Under the pieces are notes generated by a model. It ran no database searches. It was not told the origin of the DNA and was given only the letters and a program-made list of their open reading frames with translations. Below are positions 6-50,552 of a DNA stretch of 50,552 bases, piece after piece. Location of the stretch: the sequence record KX828710; one strand, given 5' to 3'. The stretch is from Shigella phage SH6. The translations under genes were made by a program, and so were the position numbers. Every line of letters starts with the position of its first letter. Within the stretch, counting starts at the first letter, position 1.

Positions 6-581
6 ATGAAAACTCAGCTTAAAGAAGTAACGGAATTTGAACTCAATCTGCCGGACTACATTCGCAAGGCGATTGAGAAGCACCAATCAGGGAATCATTT
101 CGCAATCACCGGAAACCAGATGGTAGCAATCTACGTGCATGAGCAGGCCGAGATTGTAAAGGTCACTCAGAATGTTGAGCTAACCGAGGAACAGATTGAT
201 GATGCCATCGCTAACGAGTACATCTCGCGCTCAGCCTGGTTGCTTGAACGACTCACGGCGTCGTATGTGTCCAATATCATCAAGCGACACATGCTCAAGG
301 TTCACAATAAGGCCGTGTCGGTTCGAATCAATCGCGATCCAATTGAAGGTGTAATCATATCCATCACCGAACTTGAAGGAGAGGAAGCAGACAAGGTCAT
401 ATGCGAAGCAAAACAGGGCAAGAGAGGCCGGAAGCGCAAGAGCATAGCCGATGTGTTCAATGCGAAGGTTGAGGCGTTCAGAATCGATCTGAGAGAGTTT
501 GAAGGTAGCAATATCTCAGTATCGGATCTCAATAAACTGGTGGAGCAATTCCGCGCGCATTTACTGGATGAGGAGAAGTAA
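6..581 (+). CDS. hypothetical early protein (191 aa)
   Basis: ORF track; ATG at 6 with GAGG RBS at the window end (circular junction); no motif recognised. Confidence 0.55.
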   Translation: MKTQLKEVTEFELNLPDYIRKAIEKHQSGNHFAITGNQMVAIYVHEQAEIVKVTQNVELTEEQIDDAIANEYISRSAWLLERLTASYVSNIIKRHMLKVHNKAVSVRINRDPIEGVIISITELEGEEADKVICEAKQGKRGRKRKSIADVFNAKVEAFRIDLREFEGSNISVSDLNKLVEQFRAHLLDEEK

Positions 582-583
582 TT

Positions 584-823
584 ATGAGCAAGATTAAGCA
601 TGACGCCCTGAAAGGTATCTTGATGCGACTAAACCCAGGCGAAGCATTCCAGCTTAACCCCGAGACGTTTGGATTCAATGGTGATTATCGTACAACCTTC
701 GAATTTGTCCGGTATGTAAAGAAAGAGTTTGGATTCGAAGTTATTCACGCAGGTCTTATCAATGGCATTCAGACGTTCATCTTTAAGCCAAATGAGATTC
801 GCTGCTTCACGCTGATGAAATAG
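584..823 (+). CDS. hypothetical protein (79 aa)
   Basis: ORF track; starts 3 nt after previous stop; stop TAG is first triplet of cassette motif. Confidence 0.55.
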   Translation: MSKIKHDALKGILMRLNPGEAFQLNPETFGFNGDYRTTFEFVRYVKKEFGFEVIHAGLINGIQTFIFKPNEIRCFTLMK

Positions 824-863
824 CACTTTTTGTTAAAACCGGATCGGGATAACCTGGTATAGT
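821..863 (+). promoter_or_regulatory. intergenic cassette (palindrome + hairpin + TATAGT) upstream of 895..1089
   Basis: TAGCACTTTTTGTTAAAAC; TGgTATAGT 22 nt after TTGTTA inside hairpin GGGATAAC/GTTATCCC. Confidence 0.5.
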
Positions 864-1091: not shown

Positions 1092-1559
1092 ATGACGACC
1101 ATTACCGTATTTCTGGCTAAAGATGAATTGGACGGCGAAATGTCATTCTTCGCGTTCGAGCATAAAACAGGATCGCACTGGCACATGTACACTCATTACA
1201 CGGTCATCGCAATTGAGGCTTACGACGGCGATTTCACTAGCAAGCTGAGTAATTTTATTGAAGCCGTTAAGTCTAGCGAGGGCTGCGAGTGGAAAGAAGA
1301 TCATGAAGTTATGCGAATGTATGAGATGATCAATCCGGTTCGCCTTGAGTCTTTCGAGCTTGGTTCTGATGTGACCATTAAGGTGAGAAATGCGGGTGAG
1401 TTGTTGTCGGGGATGCGTGTGCTGACTGGTTACTCTGGCCGTAAAGTGTGGCGCACTGTATCTAAGATTCGCCAGCGATCGGCAACATGCTACAGCGTAT
1501 TCTTTGAAGATGGCTGGAATATGATGTCAGGAAGTGAAGTGAAGTATCTCACCAAATAG
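1092..1559 (+). CDS. hypothetical protein (155 aa)
   Basis: ORF track; ATGA overlap with upstream gene; ends at cassette motif. Confidence 0.55.
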   Translation: MTTITVFLAKDELDGEMSFFAFEHKTGSHWHMYTHYTVIAIEAYDGDFTSKLSNFIEAVKSSEGCEWKEDHEVMRMYEMINPVRLESFELGSDVTIKVRNAGELLSGMRVLTGYSGRKVWRTVSKIRQRSATCYSVFFEDGWNMMSGSEVKYLTK

Positions 1560-1599
1560 CACGAATTGTTAAAACAGGATCGGGGTATATTGCTATAGT
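1557..1599 (+). promoter_or_regulatory. intergenic cassette upstream of 1638..1868
   Basis: TAGCACGAATTGTTAAAAC; TGcTATAGT at +22; GGGG/CCCC hairpin. Confidence 0.5.
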
Positions 1600-2388: not shown

Positions 2389-2580
2389 ATGGCTGATTTT
2401 ATGCACCAAATGATTGCAGTATTCAAAGGCAGCGATGACCATGAAGTAAAAGAGTGCTTTACTGTCAACAAGCCTTATAACGCATCGCTAACCAGCTTCG
2501 GGAATATCTCATTGCTTGATGATAACGGCGACCCCTGGGTATTCGACGAAGACACTGATTGCTTCGAAATTAAAGAATAG
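2389..2580 (+). CDS. hypothetical protein (63 aa)
   Basis: ORF track; ends at cassette motif TAG. Confidence 0.5.
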   Translation: MADFMHQMIAVFKGSDDHEVKECFTVNKPYNASLTSFGNISLLDDNGDPWVFDEDTDCFEIKE

Positions 2581-2620
2581 CACTTTTTGTTAAAACTCAA
2601 TTCCGGGGTTGCGATATAGT
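2578..2620 (+). promoter_or_regulatory. intergenic cassette upstream of 2652..3140
   Basis: TAGCACTTTTTGTTAAAAC; TATAGT at +22 inside GGGGTT/AACCCC hairpin. Confidence 0.5.
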
Positions 2621-6656: not shown

Positions 6657-7229
6657 ATGAAAACAGCTATCATTTTAAACGGTGCGCCTGGCGCGGGAAA
6701 AGACACTATAGGGTGCATCCTGGCTGACACTTACGATCATGTAGCGCTACGCAGCTTTAAAGCTCCAATGTTTGAGATTGCCCGAGCAATCTTGGGTGAG
6801 ACTAATTTCGAGTATTTCATGTTCTTGTATGAGGACCGTCGCTATAAAGAAGAGCCAGCATCAATCCTGAATGGTAAAAGCCCGCGCCAGTTTATGATCT
6901 GGATTAGCGAGGAGGTCATCAAGCCGCAGTTCGGAAATCGCTTCTTCGGTATGCGAGCGGAAAGCAAGGTGAAAGAGTCGCACTCCCTTTCGGTATTTAC
7001 TGACGGTGGATTCAAAGATGAGATCCTACAAATGATTGAGGGTGATATCCAGGTTAAGCTATGTCGAATCCATCGCAACGGTTGCAGCTTTGATAACGAC
7101 AGCCGAGACTATATCTATCTTGACGACATGATCGGGGTTAACGGTTATCAGGAATGTGACTTCTTTTCTGTCGAAGGTCATCCAGAAATTACCGCTCAGC
7201 ACATAGCCGCCACGTTCATCAATAAATAG
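6657..7229 (+). CDS. deoxynucleoside monophosphate kinase-like P-loop kinase
   Basis: Walker A GAPGAGKDT and NGKSP motif, both resembling T4 gp1-type dNMP kinase. Confidence 0.55.
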   Translation: MKTAIILNGAPGAGKDTIGCILADTYDHVALRSFKAPMFEIARAILGETNFEYFMFLYEDRRYKEEPASILNGKSPRQFMIWISEEVIKPQFGNRFFGMRAESKVKESHSLSVFTDGGFKDEILQMIEGDIQVKLCRIHRNGCSFDNDSRDYIYLDDMIGVNGYQECDFFSVEGHPEITAQHIAATFINK

Positions 7230-7269
7230 CACTAATTGCTAAAACGTCGGTGGGGTGATTTGATATAGT
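7227..7269 (+). promoter_or_regulatory. intergenic cassette upstream of 7302..7511
   Basis: TAGCACTAATTGCTAAAAC (perfect TAGCA-N5-TGCTA palindrome); TGaTATAGT at +22. Confidence 0.5.
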
Positions 7270-15757: not shown

Positions 15758-15785
15758 TTGACGCTTTAACAAAAAGTGCTATTAT
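15758..15785 (+). promoter_or_regulatory. candidate sigma70 promoter upstream of major capsid gene (overlaps reverse-oriented cassette half-motif)
   Basis: TTGACG-N16-TATTAT; spacer contains TTAACAAAAAGTGCTAT, the reverse complement of the cassette motif. Confidence 0.4.
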
Positions 15786-19495: not shown

Positions 19496-19568
19496 GTAAA
19501 ATCATCCTATCAACTTTATTCGATTAACTTTTAACAAAAAGTGCTATCAACCAATCAGGAGAAACATC

Positions 19569-35990: not shown

Positions 35991-35998
35991 CGTTTGTT

Positions 35999-36451
35999 TT
36001 AACTAAAAATGCTATTGGTCGTTCCGATATCTTCCTTCTTCACGACGCGCATAAATTTCTTGTTCTTGCATCGCTTCTCAAGGCACTTGCCGTTACCGTC
36101 AAACTTCAGGTCGAATCGCAACCATGCGGCGCGAAATCCTTTGCACCCCTGTCGGCGGTAAGCACGATGCGCAGCTTCAGCACCTTGCCATGAAATCATA
36201 TTGCGTTCTTTCCAGCCCTGCACCGTCTGATTGCTAACCTTCAGAGCCTTTGCGCAGGCCGCCGGGCCGCCGTAATATTCGATAAGGGCATCAAGTCGCG
36301 CTCGCAGTCCGGCGCGCGTTTCTTCTTTATGAATATAGAAGCCGCAGCGCTGTCGTGGCTTTTTGTCTTTACCGCGTCGTGTTCCGTTGTTACCATTGAT
36401 GTGACGTTTATCGATTTCACCAGTTGACTCCGCGATACGTTGAATACTCAT
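35999..36451 (-). CDS. Cro/YdaS-like HTH DNA-binding protein
   Basis: ACAKALKVSNQTVQGWKERNMISWQGAEAAHRA..LRFD matches YdaS/Cro-type HTH; divergent from helicase gene. Confidence 0.55.
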   Translation of the reverse strand: MSIQRIAESTGEIDKRHINGNNGTRRGKDKKPRQRCGFYIHKEETRAGLRARLDALIEYYGGPAACAKALKVSNQTVQGWKERNMISWQGAEAAHRAYRRQGCKGFRAAWLRFDLKFDGNGKCLEKRCKNKKFMRVVKKEDIGTTNSIFS

Positions 36452-36544: not shown

Positions 36545-38563
36545 GTGACAATGAACATTAAAAAGCAGATTGCATTACTTGGCGAGGACTACATAAAGCG
36601 AACTCAGGAGCGATTTACTGTTGGTGAGGTTATTCCTTATCCGTACCAGGTTGTTGCTTATGCTGAGATCGCGAAACGCCTATCAAATTACGAGCATCCA
36701 TTCTTTGTTAAAGCGTCGGTGTCTGCGGGTAAGACCATCATTTTTGCTATGGTTGCAAAGCAGTGTCAGAAAATGGGCTTAAAAATGCTTGTGCTGGCCC
36801 GTCAGGGTGAGATTGTCGATCAGGATAGCGAAGAGATCGACAACTTCGGCGTTACTAACTCAATATTCTCAGCCTCATTAGGTATTAAGTCCTGCTATTT
36901 TCCGATCGTGGTAGGCTCCGAGGGTACGGTTGCAAATGGCCTCGACAATGAGCTTGCTGATTTCGTCCCGCATGTAATTGGGATCGACGAATGTCACCAG
37001 GTGGATTGGGAAGACCTTGCGCAAGCCATTGAGGGCAAGGAAACAATGGAACAAATGAGGGGCGAGAAGGGAAAAATCATCATGGATGGAGATATTCCCA
37101 TGATTGGTAATGATGGAAAACCTTTGTTTGGGACTAAGCGCAGTCAGTACACGATCGTAATCATGGAAATGATGCGGCGCTGTAAAAAGGTTCACGGTCA
37201 CGATCTCAGAATATTTGGTATGACTGGATCTGAATTTCGTGGCGTAGTTCCTATTCTGGTAGAGAATCCGAAAGCATTGGGATTCTGGCGTGAGCGAGTA
37301 ACTGATATCGACACAAACTATCTGATTGAGTTCGGTTCTGTTGTGCCGACAATATTCGGTTCAACAGACGGAGTTCATTACGATCTGGATAAGTTCAAGG
37401 CGTCGAGCGAGGACGGAGTGCAGGACTTTACAGAGAAAGACATGAAGGCTATGGAAGATGAGATCCTTCATGATAAATCTCTTACTCAGCGAATCATGCA
37501 AATGGTTGCCAAAAAGGCTGAAGAGCGTAACGCGGTACTGATTACATGTGCTGGTGTGCGCCACTGCAAAGAGGCAGCGGCAGCACTTCCTCCGGGAAGC
37601 ACCTATGCAATTATTACTGGCGACACAGACAACAAAACGCGCAAGAAGATTCTTGACGATGTAAGGGCCGGAAAAATTAAATACACCTTTCAGGTAATGG
37701 CGCTCACTACTGGCGTTAACGTTCCAAATTGGGATTTCAGTGTCATACTCCGCAAGATAGGGTCGCTCACGCTGTTGATTCAACTCTTGGGTAGGGGTAT
37801 GCGTCTGCTTAAATCCTGGCAGGTTGCTGAGGGAATGGTTAAGCAGGACCATCTGGTATGGGATTTCGCAGGTACGATGGATGAGTTGGGTCAGCTTTAT
37901 TTCGATCCGATACTTGAGCAGGCGCAATTCCAAAAGCGTTTCGAAAACGGCAAAGATCCGAAAACATGTCCGAAATGCGGTTGCGTAAATAGCTTCTATG
38001 CTCGACGATGCGTTAATGTCATTGATGGTGAGCGTTGCGATCATTTCTGGACTTCTCAGATTTGTGAGGACCAGGTTGACGAGCGCACCGGAAAAATCCT
38101 TGTTAAAGGATGCGGCGCAGAGAATGACGTTGTGGCCCGAGTCTGTCGTTGCTGTGATGTTTCGCTTGTCGATCCTAACCTGAAGTTATCCGGTAAGGCG
38201 TACACTAAGAATGACTGGTATGAAGTAAAGAATTTTGAGGTTACGCTAACCAAAAACCAGAAAGGCATAATATACAAATACACTCTTATTAACGATGATG
38301 GTGATGAGTTCAAGGCGTATGAAAAATTCTTCCCCGAGTCTGACTCTAAGATTTGCGGTACGCTATGGAAAACTAAAGGTGTATTGCCACACGTATCAGA
38401 TCCTAAAATGCGCCGATACTTTATCGGAATGAAGAGCGCCATCAAGATTTTGCAATACTCACATCATATTGCTCACCCGGTGCGCGTAACTCATCGTCGC
38501 AACCAGAAGAAAGAAGATATTATCTCACGAAAAGACTTTGGTATGGAGGATATCCCGGAATGA
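36545..38563 (+). CDS. ATP-dependent DNA helicase (DEAD/DEAH-box superfamily 2) with C-terminal zinc ribbons
   Basis: Walker A SAGKTIIF, DECH box, CPKCGC..C..C and CGAEN..CRCC clusters. Confidence 0.75.
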   Translation: MTMNIKKQIALLGEDYIKRTQERFTVGEVIPYPYQVVAYAEIAKRLSNYEHPFFVKASVSAGKTIIFAMVAKQCQKMGLKMLVLARQGEIVDQDSEEIDNFGVTNSIFSASLGIKSCYFPIVVGSEGTVANGLDNELADFVPHVIGIDECHQVDWEDLAQAIEGKETMEQMRGEKGKIIMDGDIPMIGNDGKPLFGTKRSQYTIVIMEMMRRCKKVHGHDLRIFGMTGSEFRGVVPILVENPKALGFWRERVTDIDTNYLIEFGSVVPTIFGSTDGVHYDLDKFKASSEDGVQDFTEKDMKAMEDEILHDKSLTQRIMQMVAKKAEERNAVLITCAGVRHCKEAAAALPPGSTYAIITGDTDNKTRKKILDDVRAGKIKYTFQVMALTTGVNVPNWDFSVILRKIGSLTLLIQLLGRGMRLLKSWQVAEGMVKQDHLVWDFAGTMDELGQLYFDPILEQAQFQKRFENGKDPKTCPKCGCVNSFYARRCVNVIDGERCDHFWTSQICEDQVDERTGKILVKGCGAENDVVARVCRCCDVSLVDPNLKLSGKAYTKNDWYEVKNFEVTLTKNQKGIIYKYTLINDDGDEFKAYEKFFPESDSKICGTLWKTKGVLPHVSDPKMRRYFIGMKSAIKILQYSHHIAHPVRVTHRRNQKKEDIISRKDFGMEDIPE

Positions 38564-38976
38564 TTACAGACAAAGGTGATTATTTAGAATTTTACGAGAG
38601 AGATCCGAGCGACACTCGAAAGGAGGACGCTCATCAGGTGGATTGTGTATCTTGGCTGAAATACAATTTTCCTCACCTTCTATTTTGGCACACCGTCAAT
38701 GAGGGTGAAAAAACAATCACATCGGCGCTCAGGGATGAGCAGTCCGGATTACTTAAAGGTGTGTCAGACTTCGTTATCCTGATTGGTATTAACTCACGCT
38801 ACCCGTTCGCAGCTATCGAACTCAAGCGGGTTAATAAGTCAGGCAAAGGAAAGGCGTCACCAGTCAGTGATAAGCAGAAGGAGTTTCTCCGAAAGGTCCG
38901 AGAACGTGGCGGCTTCCCTGCTGTCGCATACGGATTCGAACAGTTCAAAGTCGCAATTTACGAATTGATGAAATAG
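38560..38976 (+). CDS. VRR-NUC domain nuclease
   Basis: VSDFVILI..AAIELKR..S..Q pattern of VRR-NUC (PD-(D/E)xK). Confidence 0.65.
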   Translation: MITDKGDYLEFYERDPSDTRKEDAHQVDCVSWLKYNFPHLLFWHTVNEGEKTITSALRDEQSGLLKGVSDFVILIGINSRYPFAAIELKRVNKSGKGKASPVSDKQKEFLRKVRERGGFPAVAYGFEQFKVAIYELMK

Positions 38977-39016
38977 CACTTTTTGTTAAAACTGCCGGAA
39001 TGGAATCTGGCATTAT
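38974..39016 (+). promoter_or_regulatory. intergenic cassette upstream of dam
   Basis: TAGCACTTTTTGTTAAAAC; TGgCATTAT at +22; near-identical inverted copy at 48640..48711. Confidence 0.5.
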
Positions 39017-39043: not shown

Positions 39044-39757
39044 ATGAAAGACTTTAATGATATTGAAACCATCGACTTTGCAGAGACTGGGTGCTCATTC
39101 ACTCGCGAAGCAATAGCATCAGGCGGTTATTATCAGGCGTTAAAAACGCCAACATGCAAAGAGATTTCAGGTCGTCGATATAAGGGTACAAACACACCTG
39201 ACGCAGTTCGTGATTTATGGTCAACTCCACGAGAGGTTATTGCATACCTTGAGGGTCGGTACGGAAAATACGATCTCGACGCTGCGGCAAGCGAAGAAAA
39301 TAAAGTTTGCGATAAGTTCTACTCCCAAGAAACAAACTGCTTAAAACGTTGGTGGGGTAAGAATAAGCACGTTTGGTTAAACCCTCCTTATAGCCGACCT
39401 GATATATTCGTCAAGAAGGCTATTGAGCAAATGGAGCACAACAACCAGATCGATATACTGTTACCAGCCGATAACTCTACGGCGTGGTTTACTGAGGCGC
39501 GGCAGAACGCAGCTGAAATCATCTGGATTGAAGCGGACTTGACTGAGGATGTTGACGGAAATGAATACGCACGATCCGGTCGTCTGGCCTTCATATCCGG
39601 TGAAACTGGAAAGGCCGTAGATGGCAATAACAAAGGTTCGGTAATTTTTATTATGCGCGAACTTAAAGAAGGTGAGGTGCAACAGACTCACTACATCCCA
39701 ATCACAAGCATTTGCCCTTCGGTGAAAAACAAACGAGCAAAGGTGAGAAAAGTATGA
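39044..39757 (+). CDS. dam: DNA N6-adenine methyltransferase (phage Dam type)
   Basis: DLDAAAS and WLNPPYS motifs. Confidence 0.8.
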   Translation: MKDFNDIETIDFAETGCSFTREAIASGGYYQALKTPTCKEISGRRYKGTNTPDAVRDLWSTPREVIAYLEGRYGKYDLDAAASEENKVCDKFYSQETNCLKRWWGKNKHVWLNPPYSRPDIFVKKAIEQMEHNNQIDILLPADNSTAWFTEARQNAAEIIWIEADLTEDVDGNEYARSGRLAFISGETGKAVDGNNKGSVIFIMRELKEGEVQQTHYIPITSICPSVKNKRAKVRKV

Positions 39758-43721: not shown

Positions 43722-43765
43722 AATATACCCGATACGAGATCGGGTGTTTTAACAAAAAGTGCTAT
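43722..43765 (-). promoter_or_regulatory. intergenic cassette (minus orientation) upstream of 43469..43684
   Basis: Minus strand ATAGCACTTTTTGTTAAAAC; TATATT at +22; CATCGAAACGA leader. Confidence 0.5.
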
Positions 43766-43873
43766 TTGTATCTTTTGACATGGAGAAGCAACTCCCCCTC
43801 CTGGTCGCAAAGATTATGCTCACTGTCGCCGCTGGCCCTCATTGAAGTGAGCAGCAGGCTCAACAATCCTTGT

Positions 43874-47983: not shown

Positions 47984-47987
47984 ATAA

Positions 47988-48218
47988 TTACCCTCTGAAA
48001 CTATCAATAGTGTCGTTGATGTATTTCACTTGCGCCTCTACGTCAGACGTGGCGATGTACTGGAATGTATCGTAATCCTCCCGCAAGTCCACAAGCTCGA
48101 CCTTAGTATGATGCTCTTTAAGCCCTCCCATGTGACCGTAATGTGTGCGGTAGACAATGAATCCCTCGTCATTGGCGCGCTGGATTGCTTTCTTTAATCC
48201 AGGGTGTTTGATTGCCAT
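47988..48218 (-). CDS. hypothetical protein (76 aa)
   Basis: ORF track; cassette and CAGGAG RBS upstream. Confidence 0.5.
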   Translation of the reverse strand: MAIKHPGLKKAIQRANDEGFIVYRTHYGHMGGLKEHHTKVELVDLREDYDTFQYIATSDVEAQVKYINDTIDSFRG

Positions 48219-48250
48219 ATGGTGATTCTCCTGATTGGTTGATGTTGTTT

Positions 48251-48296
48251 ACTATACCCCGATTCCCTTCGGGGCGTTTAGCAATTCGTGCTATTA
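48251..48296 (-). promoter_or_regulatory. intergenic cassette (minus) upstream of 47988..48218
   Basis: Minus strand TAGCACGAATTGCTAAAC; TATAGT at +22 in CCCCGAAGGG hairpin. Confidence 0.5.
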
Positions 48297-48629
48297 ATCG
48301 ATATCGAACTCAGCGGCATATGCTTTCTTGAAGCCAGCTTCACGCATGGTGCGCTTGCTGATTTTTCGCGGGAATTTGTAATGACTGTTAGGTTTAACCC
48401 ACCAGAAGCAGGCAGTCTCGCGAACAATTTCATATTTACCGTAACGGGTGAAGATGTCACGTTCATCGTCAGGCTGGTTAACACAGGTAAGGAATTTAGC
48501 TGCTTTGTCTTCAGTTTTGATTTCTTCCCATACGAAAGAATCCATACCGTTAACCTTGCAAGCTACCATGATGTACTCAACGCCGTTTTCGATTTTGATG
48601 ATTTCGTTACCGCGATTTTCGTATTTCAT
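48294..48629 (-). CDS. hypothetical protein (111 aa)
   Basis: Internal ATG of track ORF 48294..48701 with CAGGAG RBS; cassette upstream. Confidence 0.5.
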   Translation of the reverse strand: MKYENRGNEIIKIENGVEYIMVACKVNGMDSFVWEEIKTEDKAAKFLTCVNQPDDERDIFTRYGKYEIVRETACFWWVKPNSHYKFPRKISKRTMREAGFKKAYAAEFDID

Positions 48630-48667
48630 TTCCCTACTCCTGATGTGTATCTCGTTTCGATGAAGTA

Positions 48668-48711
48668 ATAATGCCAGATTCCATTCCGGCAGTTTTAACA
48701 AAAAGTGCTAT
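48668..48711 (-). promoter_or_regulatory. intergenic cassette (minus) upstream of 48294..48629
   Basis: ~60 nt near-identical to plus-strand cassette at 38974..39035. Confidence 0.5.
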
Positions 48712-48897
48712 TTAGAATTTTACTTCCTCAACAAGCTCAACCTTTTTGCACCCCAGGCGATAGGAGTCGCCGAACAACAATAACCCCATAAATTCATCTT
48801 TGGTTATTGACTCCTTACCAACTGTTCTAAGCTCTCCGTTGTGAACTACAGTATCGCCGATCTTGATTTCTGATTTATGCACTAATTTCGTTTTCAT
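48712..48897 (-). CDS. hypothetical protein (61 aa)
   Basis: ORF track; coupled to upstream gene. Confidence 0.45.
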   Translation of the reverse strand: MKTKLVHKSEIKIGDTVVHNGELRTVGKESITKDEFMGLLLFGDSYRLGCKKVELVEEVKF

Positions 48898-48912
48898 TTG
48901 CTAGCCCGTTAA

Positions 48913-49098
48913 TTAAAAGAATGCTACATAGTTTGCAATGCCTTTGGCGTCGTCGTTAGGCATTGCTTTGACAGCAAGGTCGTAACCCGCTTCTACCTTT
49001 TGCTTTGCTGATTCTTCGTTGTACCCACAAATAACCAGAATTTTAACTACGTTTTCTTTGTTCAGAACTTTAAGGTCTTTAGTGATGCGACGTGCCAT
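48913..49098 (-). CDS. hypothetical protein (61 aa)
   Basis: Internal ATG of track ORF 48913..49113; cassette upstream. Confidence 0.45.
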   Translation of the reverse strand: MARRITKDLKVLNKENVVKILVICGYNEESAKQKVEAGYDLAVKAMPNDDAKGIANYVAFF

Positions 49099-49131
49099 TT
49101 TGTTTTTCCTCAATCTCGTTTCGATGAGGTA

Positions 49132-49175
49132 ATTATGCCAAATCGCACCGATCTGGTTTTAACAAAAAGTGCTAT
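49132..49175 (-). promoter_or_regulatory. intergenic cassette (minus) upstream of 48913..49098
   Basis: Minus strand ATAGCACTTTTTGTTAAAAC; CATAAT at +22; CATCGAAACGAGA leader. Confidence 0.5.
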
Positions 49176-49863
49176 TTGCGATCGCTTTGAAAAATCCACG
49201 CGGCGACAGGGATCGTATCAGCTTCGTTTTGGCAGACTTGCCGCCTAACTTGCTGTGCTGCGCAGAGTACCCGTCAGGCAGGTTTACAGGTTTTCTTTCC
49301 GGCATAACGAAGTCGTCAGAGGTCCACAGACAAGTTTTCTTAGGGTAAGCATCGCGCGGCGCAATATACATCGGGAACCAGGGATGAGCGTCATTCTCCG
49401 GAAGATAGCCGCCATACTCCCAGGGATTGAAGGAGTGATTTGGTTTTCTCCATGCAGACGACAGGACGCTCACCGGATTCTCAATGATGTAAGTCACGCC
49501 CAGTGCGTCGCCAATGTTCGCAGCAATCCTTGCGGTGGCAACAGCCTTCTCCTGGAATAACGGATCGCGCTCACGCTTACTTGCAAAGTGACTAGCACCA
49601 CTAACAGCCAGGTCAGTGCATGGAGGAAAGGCCATGATGAAATCCGGCTTGCCATACACACCAGCGATAGCATCACGTTCGAACTTCTCATCAATGAAGA
49701 CGTTCACATACTCAATGTTCGGATGCTCTACCCTGGCGTTATACTTCGCATAATCTCCGTGATCGGCTCCGTCAAAGTTGAAGCACATCACCTTATGACC
49801 TTGCCTTGCCAGTTCATGACCAGCAAGACCGGAACCGTCGAATAGCGACCAAATTAATTTCAT
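49159..49863 (-). CDS. compact DNA (cytosine-5)-methyltransferase-like protein
   Basis: Motif I LFDGSG, motif IV FPPCTD, motif VI IIENPV in canonical order; only 234 aa. Confidence 0.5.
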   Translation of the reverse strand: MKLIWSLFDGSGLAGHELARQGHKVMCFNFDGADHGDYAKYNARVEHPNIEYVNVFIDEKFERDAIAGVYGKPDFIMAFPPCTDLAVSGASHFASKRERDPLFQEKAVATARIAANIGDALGVTYIIENPVSVLSSAWRKPNHSFNPWEYGGYLPENDAHPWFPMYIAPRDAYPKKTCLWTSDDFVMPERKPVNLPDGYSAQHSKLGGKSAKTKLIRSLSPRGFFKAIANSTFC

Positions 49864-49897
49864 CGTGACTCCCTCTTCTGATTGGTTTATGGCCCGA

Positions 49898-49941
49898 ACT
49901 ATACCCTGACAACTTGGTCAAGTCGTTAGCAAAAAATGCTA
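49898..49941 (-). promoter_or_regulatory. intergenic cassette (minus) upstream of C5-MTase-like gene
   Basis: Minus strand TAGCATTTTTTGCTAACGAC (perfect palindrome); TATAGT ~23 nt downstream. Confidence 0.5.
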
Positions 49942-50192
49942 TTCCAATAATTGCTCATTATTCCATCAATAATGGAATAGGTGGAATAATTTTGATTGCG
50001 ATTGATTGCAAATGATGAAACGTGATTATTGCATGATGTGCAACGGTTGGTTGATTTGTTGCTGAGAATGCAATGATTGCGAGAGGGGGGATCTAGTGTT
50101 ACCCGGTTCGCCTGGTGGTCATCTCCATTCTTAGCAAAACGTGCTATTCGTCTATGCGGTAGTTGTAATTGTCGTAATAGTTGTATACCATC

Positions 50193-50300
50193 AGGGGTGT
50201 TACAAAATGGCCCGAGAATCGATAGGCCTATAGATAATAAAATATCTATATATAATAATAAGATAGATAATATATATTTATTTATTTATTATATTATATA
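50193..50300. repeat. AT-rich repeat element copy B (GGGTGTTACAAAAT ... AGATAGATAATAT)
   Basis: Direct repeat of copy A; lies in divergent region between leftward block and early region. Confidence 0.6.
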
Positions 50301-50552
50301 TTGGCATGTAATCGGCGTAATAGGTGCAACCGCATTTTTGGAGGGTGGCATATATTTCAGGGTGCATAGTATAGAAAACATACTATTCCGCGCGCAAAAA
50401 TAGATGTGCGTACTTTTTTAGAAAAAGTCGGTTGCATCGGTTGCACTGGTTACAAAAATAAAAAATGCAGCTATAGACATTGACAGCTCTAGCCTGGTAG
50501 CTGTAACATGTTTTTCGAGGTGGCAAGTTACGCCCATAGACAACGAGGTATA

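Follow-up and report, generated by a model that had tools for sequence, protein, structure and literature searches.

The window that we analyzed is the entire 50,552-nucleotide sequence of Shigella phage SH6 (sequence record KX828710). It is a complete T1-like genome (Tunavirus, Drexlerviridae) whose nearest relatives in GenBank are approximately 93-94% identical, and its end joins its own start, since the alignment to phage AV106 runs through without a break. The leftward block of this genome includes a gene, hereafter dcm, for a compact Dcm-like DNA C5-cytosine methyltransferase. The features of the gene, its product and its surroundings are as follows:

49159..49863, minus strand: coding sequence of the Dcm-like methyltransferase, 234 aa plus stop, with an ATG start (ORF list)
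49869..49873, minus strand: Shine-Dalgarno sequence GGGAG, 5 nt upstream of the dcm ATG (read from the sequence)
49828..49845, minus strand: motif I (LFDGSG; residues 7-12), the SAM-binding FxGxG loop that follows strand beta1 (sequence, and hhalign to FAGIGG of Dcm)
49612..49629, minus strand: motif IV, FPPCTD, residues 79-84 (hhalign to FPCQ of E. coli Dcm)
49618-49620, minus strand: C82, the predicted catalytic nucleophile, in P81-C82 (conservation, and numbering shared with K42 Dcm)
49471..49488, minus strand: motif VI, IIENPV, residues 126-131, containing E128 (hhalign to ENV of E. coli Dcm)
49321..49470, minus strand: family-specific conserved segment, residues 132-181, WRKP..F.P.EYGGYLP..D.HP..P..I..RDAY.KKTCLW (conservation, and secondary structure of the model)
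49336-49341, minus strand: K175/K176, within segment 132-181 (substrate-binding residues named for K42 Dcm)
49246..49320, minus strand: residues 182-206, a short variable stretch where the target-recognition domain would sit (alignment)
49156..49177, minus strand: one copy of the 22-mer AAATAGCACTTTTTGTTAAAAC, spanning the last 6 codons and the stop of dcm (pattern search)
49864..50552, no strand assigned: repeat-rich divergent intergenic region between the leftward block, in which dcm is first, and the rightward block (ORF lists)
47985..49900, minus strand: accessory block absent from T1, with four small ORFs (one DUF7421) plus dcm (blastn and tblastn against the complete T1 genome)
39044..39757, plus strand: Dam, an N6-adenine methyltransferase of the T1 type and the phage's second methyltransferase (PF05869, phrog_111)

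The first-pass annotation, made from the letters alone, had called dcm the first gene of the leftward block, and the layout agrees: a divergent gap of about 694 bp (49864-50552 plus 1-5) lies on its 5' side, followed by the first rightward ORF at 6..581. The operon that dcm leads is presumably expressed early. Scanning the minus strand upstream of dcm for a consensus sigma-70 promoter returned no match, and inspection by eye gave imperfect promoter candidates only. Immediately downstream of dcm is the DUF7421 ORF (48913..49113, minus strand, 66 aa, E=9.8e-41), the one match in a Pfam scan of the five ORFs downstream of the gene; the other four had none.

Several repeats can be found in the divergent region. 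A 19-mer, TTAGCAAAA(AA/CG)TGCTATTC, has two copies, at 49926 and 50131, and a weaker third at 50375; it resembles the 22-mer AAATAGCACTTTTTGTTAAAAC. TCGGTTGCA stands in tandem at 50428-50445, as does TTGATTGC(G/A)A at 49992-50011 with a further copy at 50073, and an AT-rich block at 50220-50300 holds ATAGATAATA twice. The region from 49864 to 50552 may be a regulatory or origin region.

A pattern search of the genome allowing up to 3 mismatches gave 11 matches to the 22-mer AAATAGCACTTTTTGTTAAAAC, with 0 expected:

818-839, plus strand
1554-1575, plus strand
2575-2596, plus strand
7224-7245, plus strand
15763-15784, minus strand
19528-19549, minus strand
35996-36017, minus strand
38971-38992, plus strand, just upstream of Dam
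43746-43767, minus strand
48692-48713, minus strand
49156-49177, minus strand, at the end of dcm

Most copies are oriented with local transcription, a hairpin comes next, and the T1 record has rho-independent terminators annotated at the equivalent places. In T1-like phages the 22-mer probably represents a conserved box, whether a terminator, a processing site or a promoter.

The protein matches phrog_757, "DNA methyltransferase", over residues 1-231 (E=1.7e-84). The match to PF00145 (DNA_methylase) is 11.2 bits (E=0.24), below the gathering cut-off of 22, and with that profile an E-value under 0.01 is obtained for just 2 of 45 family members. An NCBIfam search with the protein returned no match. 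Pfam and NCBIfam miss the family. HMMER searches of PDB sequences, whether with the single protein or with a profile of the 45 members, found no methyltransferase, and the link to solved C5-methyltransferases came from fold comparison alone rather than from sequence search. The family is nonetheless large. Scanning 1.84 billion representatives with HMMER at E<=0.001 gave 942 clusters at 50% identity, a word-indexed search gave 4825 clusters at 90% identity, and tblastn placed a dcm homologue in 1518 of 50,697 phage records. Carriers include Drexlerviridae, rV5-like and other large myoviruses, phages of Klebsiella, Salmonella, Campylobacter and Vibrio, and one cyanophage. Homologues are annotated as "DNA methyltransferase" or "putative DNA cytosine methyltransferase", and many merely as "hypothetical protein". 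The SH6 protein is no oddity: it is typical of its phage family, which is large, already known and annotated, and in part characterized. In some uncultured phages, the compact methyltransferase module can also be seen fused into much larger proteins, such as BFVD A0A6J5SE15 (1397 aa) and A0A6J5NPY6 (1126 aa), P0260 (414 aa) and P0143 (334 aa); one of the fused proteins is annotated "Helicase/UvrB, N-terminal".

Motifs I, IV and VI had been noted in canonical order, and both the sequence and an in-register hhalign comparison with E. coli Dcm confirm this. The comparison holds motifs I-VI in register but is weak (E=0.022, low probability); its register, taken together with the predicted fold, puts the co-occurrence of the three motifs beyond chance. 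Motif I reads F8-D-G10-S-G12, with the middle glycine not kept in distant family members, while motif VI is an ENPV variant (E128-N129-P130-V131) in which the family conserves E128, N129 and P130. C82 is invariant in one family alignment and at least 90% conserved in a second, C82, E128 and K175 are each at least 90% conserved in the family, and C82, E128, N129 and K175 are kept across hundreds of clusters. At the positions of motif VIII and of motifs IX-X, the model has RDAYPKKTCLW and IRSLSPRGF, and the canonical QxRxR and GNxV consensus sequences are absent. We also considered an amino-methyltransferase (N6A/N4C) reading of "FPPC" and rejected it, since the motif misfits (D/N/S)PP(Y/F/W) and all top fold matches are C5 enzymes.

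The predicted structure has a full seven-stranded core, the N-terminal part of which carries motifs I to VI, and its fold matches C5-methyltransferases (18 C5-methyltransferase-fold matches). The catalytic domains of DNMT3A and DNMT3B are the best structural relatives by fold comparison, at 13-16% identity. Identification of the protein as a C5-cytosine methyltransferase is upheld by the phrog_757 match, the motifs and the predicted fold. In this analysis we established the motifs and family membership directly, and the C5-methyltransferase fold as it appears in a predicted structure.

The first-pass annotation described the protein as unusually compact, shorter than typical C5-methyltransferases and without room for a full target-recognition domain. 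The latter two statements are correct: the PF00145 profile has 324 positions, E. coli Dcm 472 aa and M.HhaI 327 aa, and about 25 residues stand at the position of the target-recognition domain. In classical C5-methyltransferases this domain has about 80 or more residues. "Unusually compact" does not stand, because 234 aa is normal for the family, whose median length is 233 aa in the best 150 of the 942 clusters, and lies inside the single-domain range of about 210-260 aa by which we judged membership. The small size arises because a very short segment replaces the usual target-recognition domain. In SH6 this segment has 25 aa; in a set of 45 diverse family members its length is 16-41 aa, with a median of 26, and no other part of the C-terminal half is prone to indels. 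Before it come residues 132-181, which together with one further stretch are the best conserved in the family (mean column conservation 0.64) and in which a strand at 177-181 occupies the motif VIII position in the model. The C-terminal end of the protein consists of conserved helices with IRSL(S/T)PRGF.

Two homologues have been studied in other phages. KarlJaspers (Bas06) gp55 (QXV82308.1) shares 56% identity with the SH6 protein over residues 3-228 (BLASTP, E=4e-88), matches the same PHROG 757 (E=6.2e-86), and is annotated "Dcm-like C5 cytosine methyltransferase" in the BASEL collection. We used this Bas06 sequence as a stand-in for the Dcm of K42, a KarlJaspers strain that is 95.4% identical to KarlJaspers at the genome level (bioRxiv 10.1101/2023.08.16.553469; later published as Wang et al., Cell Rep 2024;43:114857). 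In that study of retron Ec86, four of four K42 escape mutants were hit in or just upstream of the 711-bp dcm gene, expression of K42 Dcm was toxic to cells only if they carried Ec86, and a C82A/E128A/K175A/K176A mutant was inert. K42 Dcm raised 5-methylcytosine on the retron msDNA as measured by LC-MS, the msDNA of dcm+ MG1655 had little 5-methylcytosine when the phage gene was missing, and retron defence was lost when either C of the CCTGG in the msDNA hairpin was mutated. The CCWGG specificity of K42 Dcm was assumed from E. coli Dcm, its only support being the mutation of the msDNA site. A Dcm of this type is encoded by 34 of 35 Ec86-sensitive phages (bioRxiv 10.1101/2023.08.16.553469).

The second homologue, gp52 of Pantoea phage AAS23 (Sauletekiovirus, Drexlerviridae), is 51% identical over its full length (E=2e-79). 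It also lacks conserved-domain matches, and its link to methyltransferases was found by HHpred (PMC8004638). AAS23 virion DNA was judged to be Dam- and Dcm-methylated by restriction-digest patterns only, to which the host Dcm may have contributed (PMC8004638). Our literature search found nothing on 5-methylcytosine in Tunavirus. Two further papers were set aside as evidence on this family: a PLoS Biol 2025 retron paper, the subject of which is an N6-adenine methyltransferase of another family, and a BF23/T5 paper, the subject of which is avoidance of host methylation.

On this basis we consider it reasonably probable that the PHROG 757 protein encoded by the first leftward gene of SH6 is an active DNA cytosine-C5 methyltransferase that uses SAM and most likely produces 5-methylcytosine at CCWGG. 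For SH6, enzymatic activity, the 5-methylcytosine product and retron triggering would follow by analogy with the homologues described in the literature, and CCWGG specificity and a benefit against restriction are inferred. The protein would fold as a class-I methyltransferase Rossmann core in which motif I holds SAM. C82 of motif IV would act as the nucleophile on cytosine C6, following the classical covalent mechanism, and E128 of motif VI would act on N3. The large target-recognition domain appears to be replaced by the loop of roughly 25 residues plus the family-specific segment 132-181. By analogy, the enzyme would most likely place 5-methylcytosine in CCWGG, the Dcm-type site, both in the phage genome and in whatever other cellular DNA it can reach. 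With its Dam (GATC), the phage would then itself encode both of the host's housekeeping methylation specificities. The phage DNA could thereby be methylated completely even when replication is rapid or the host has no Dcm, and so be protected from mark-sensitive restriction enzymes, for example those of the EcoRII type. It could also make the phage detectable by retron Eco1/Ec86, which fires on methylation of the msDNA hairpin.

The same class of enzyme could have a target other than CCWGG, such as a shorter or relaxed motif, or single-stranded or hairpin DNA (replication intermediates, msDNA), and we regard this as possible although rather unlikely. In its favour, the segment at the position of the target-recognition domain is just 16-41 aa across the family, which extends to Campylobacter phages and cyanophages, and the closest structural relatives are DNMT3A and DNMT3B. 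These two enzymes recognize a 2-bp site. Furthermore, the msDNA of a dcm+ host carried little methylation before expression of the phage enzyme, with the site itself inferred; the low 5-methylcytosine on MG1655 msDNA suggests that the phage enzyme may differ from the host Dcm in site or substrate preference. Against this, the loss of retron defence when either C of the msDNA CCTGG was changed points to a Dcm-type site, AAS23 DNA digests as Dcm-methylated, and the high conservation of the candidate recognition segment 132-181 is consistent with a specificity common to the family. We also put forward, tentatively and as a doubtful proposition, that the family reads DNA through a module of its own (residues 132-181 plus the loop of about 25 aa) with a specificity or substrate unlike those of the host Dcm. 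Such a module may, for example, favour a shorter motif or hairpin or single-stranded DNA, or have a DNMT3-like need to dimerize. If true, it would account for msDNA being methylated by the phage enzyme yet hardly by the Dcm of an MG1655 host.

Three other readings, a different C5 chemistry, an RNA substrate and a dead enzyme, each find little support. The first-pass annotation had raised a different pyrimidine-C5 chemistry, of which we saw no sign: the 56%-identical K42/KarlJaspers enzyme gives 5-methylcytosine by LC-MS. Transfer of a carboxymethyl group from Cx-SAM, hydroxymethylation or a free-nucleotide substrate is accordingly judged highly improbable, because 8yf3 is merely one of the 18 C5-methyltransferase-fold matches and not the best, and the fold is that of a class-I SAM methyltransferase and not of a thymidylate synthase or dCMP-hydroxymethylase. 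An RNA (tRNA) m5C methyltransferase of the DNMT2 type seems extremely improbable. It is very unlikely, too, that the protein is a catalytically dead or decaying methyltransferase relic or a DNA-binding protein that does not methylate. The absence of dcm from T1, the stops and frameshifts in 4 of 12 close relatives and the score under the Pfam threshold would fit such a relic, but the ORF is intact in SH6, C82, E128, N129 and K175 are conserved over hundreds of clusters, and the 56%-identical homologue is active in a manner that depends on C82/E128/K175/K176.

Our comparisons with related genomes show that dcm, presumed active in SH6, is a dispensable accessory gene, being absent from T1 and damaged in four of the 12 close Tunavirus relatives compared. 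It lies at the promoter-proximal end of the leftward operon, within an accessory block of about 1.9 kb relative to T1, and tblastn of the complete T1 genome found no dcm-like gene. Among the relatives, the DELF2 gene has a nonsense codon at position 62; we rejected a frameshift as the cause of its split, since there is a single nonsense codon and no indel. The genes of IME18 and ADB-2 have 701 nt instead of 702, a 1-nt length change, and that of a relative (contig L023) has 667 nt and is 35 nt shorter. JMPW2 has lost only the last 6 residues. The isolation host of IME18 is BL21(DE3), which carries the native Ec86 operon (bioRxiv 10.1101/2023.08.16.553469). The disrupted alleles could be natural retron-escape alleles, produced by retron counter-selection, or they could be sequencing errors.

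The Dam gene that the first-pass annotation had placed at 39044..39757, and had named in addition to the C5 enzyme, is genuine: PF05869 matches with 232.8 bits (cut-off of 28.1; E=2.4e-69) and phrog_111 with E=5e-85. A VRR-NUC nuclease gene (38560-38976, plus strand) follows the helicase and lies directly upstream of Dam. Drexlerviridae abundantly encode N6-adenine and C5-cytosine methyltransferases, and in the BASEL collection the methyltransferase genes show no simple relation to restriction resistance (PMC8594841). Restriction evasion through dual DNA modification, as the first-pass annotation suggested, would be a plausible role for dcm. In the SH6 genome, the observed/expected ratios are 0.86 for CCWGG and 0.76 for GATC, site statistics that cannot settle specificity. 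GAATTC, CTGCAG, GCCGGC, CCGCGG, ACCGGT, CGGCCG, GAGCTC, GGTACC, GGGCCC, ACTAGT and CCTAGG have zero copies genome-wide, AAGCTT occurs once where 16 are expected, TCCGGA occurs 5 times where 20.5 are expected, and CTAG has an observed/expected ratio of 0.44. Given this strong avoidance of six-base palindromes, site avoidance appears to be a major anti-restriction strategy beside methylation.

We view dcm as an ordinary accessory gene of T1-like phages, which GenBank already annotates as a methyltransferase. Its sole demonstrated consequence, in the K42 homologue, is a cost to the phage, namely the triggering of retron Ec86. By analogy, we predict that phages with an intact dcm, as in SH6, are sensitive to retron Eco1/Ec86, a natural constituent of E. 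coli B/BL21 strains. SH6 DNA likely carries both 6mA and 5mC, as the homologues suggest, which would affect cloning, restriction mapping and nanopore base-calling.

Compared with classical PF00145 enzymes such as E. coli Dcm, M.HhaI and M.HaeIII, the phage protein is about 100-240 residues shorter, its target-recognition domain is cut to roughly 25 aa, and KKTCLW and IRSL(S/T)PRGF stand in place of QxRxR and GNAV. DNMT3A and DNMT3B are likewise members of the C5-methyltransferase superfamily with a small target-recognition domain, although common descent with the phage enzyme is unsupported beyond the superfamily level and DNMT3 forms a dimer or tetramer with regulatory domains. AAS23 shares with SH6 the gene order of helicase, VRR-NUC and Dam, whereas its host is Pantoea. 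The nearest studied system is that of K42/KarlJaspers, in which the data on retron triggering and on the 5-methylcytosine product come from K42 Dcm only. The C82, E128, K175 and K176 of K42 Dcm are all present in SH6 with identical numbering, and KarlJaspers gp55 has 236 aa against 234 aa here. Both KarlJaspers and SH6 are Drexlerviridae with a Dam-type enzyme and with dcm in the leftward early block; KarlJaspers belongs to Tempevirinae (Hanrivervirus) and has dcm in mid-operon, while SH6 belongs to Tunavirinae (Tunavirus) and has it as the first gene.
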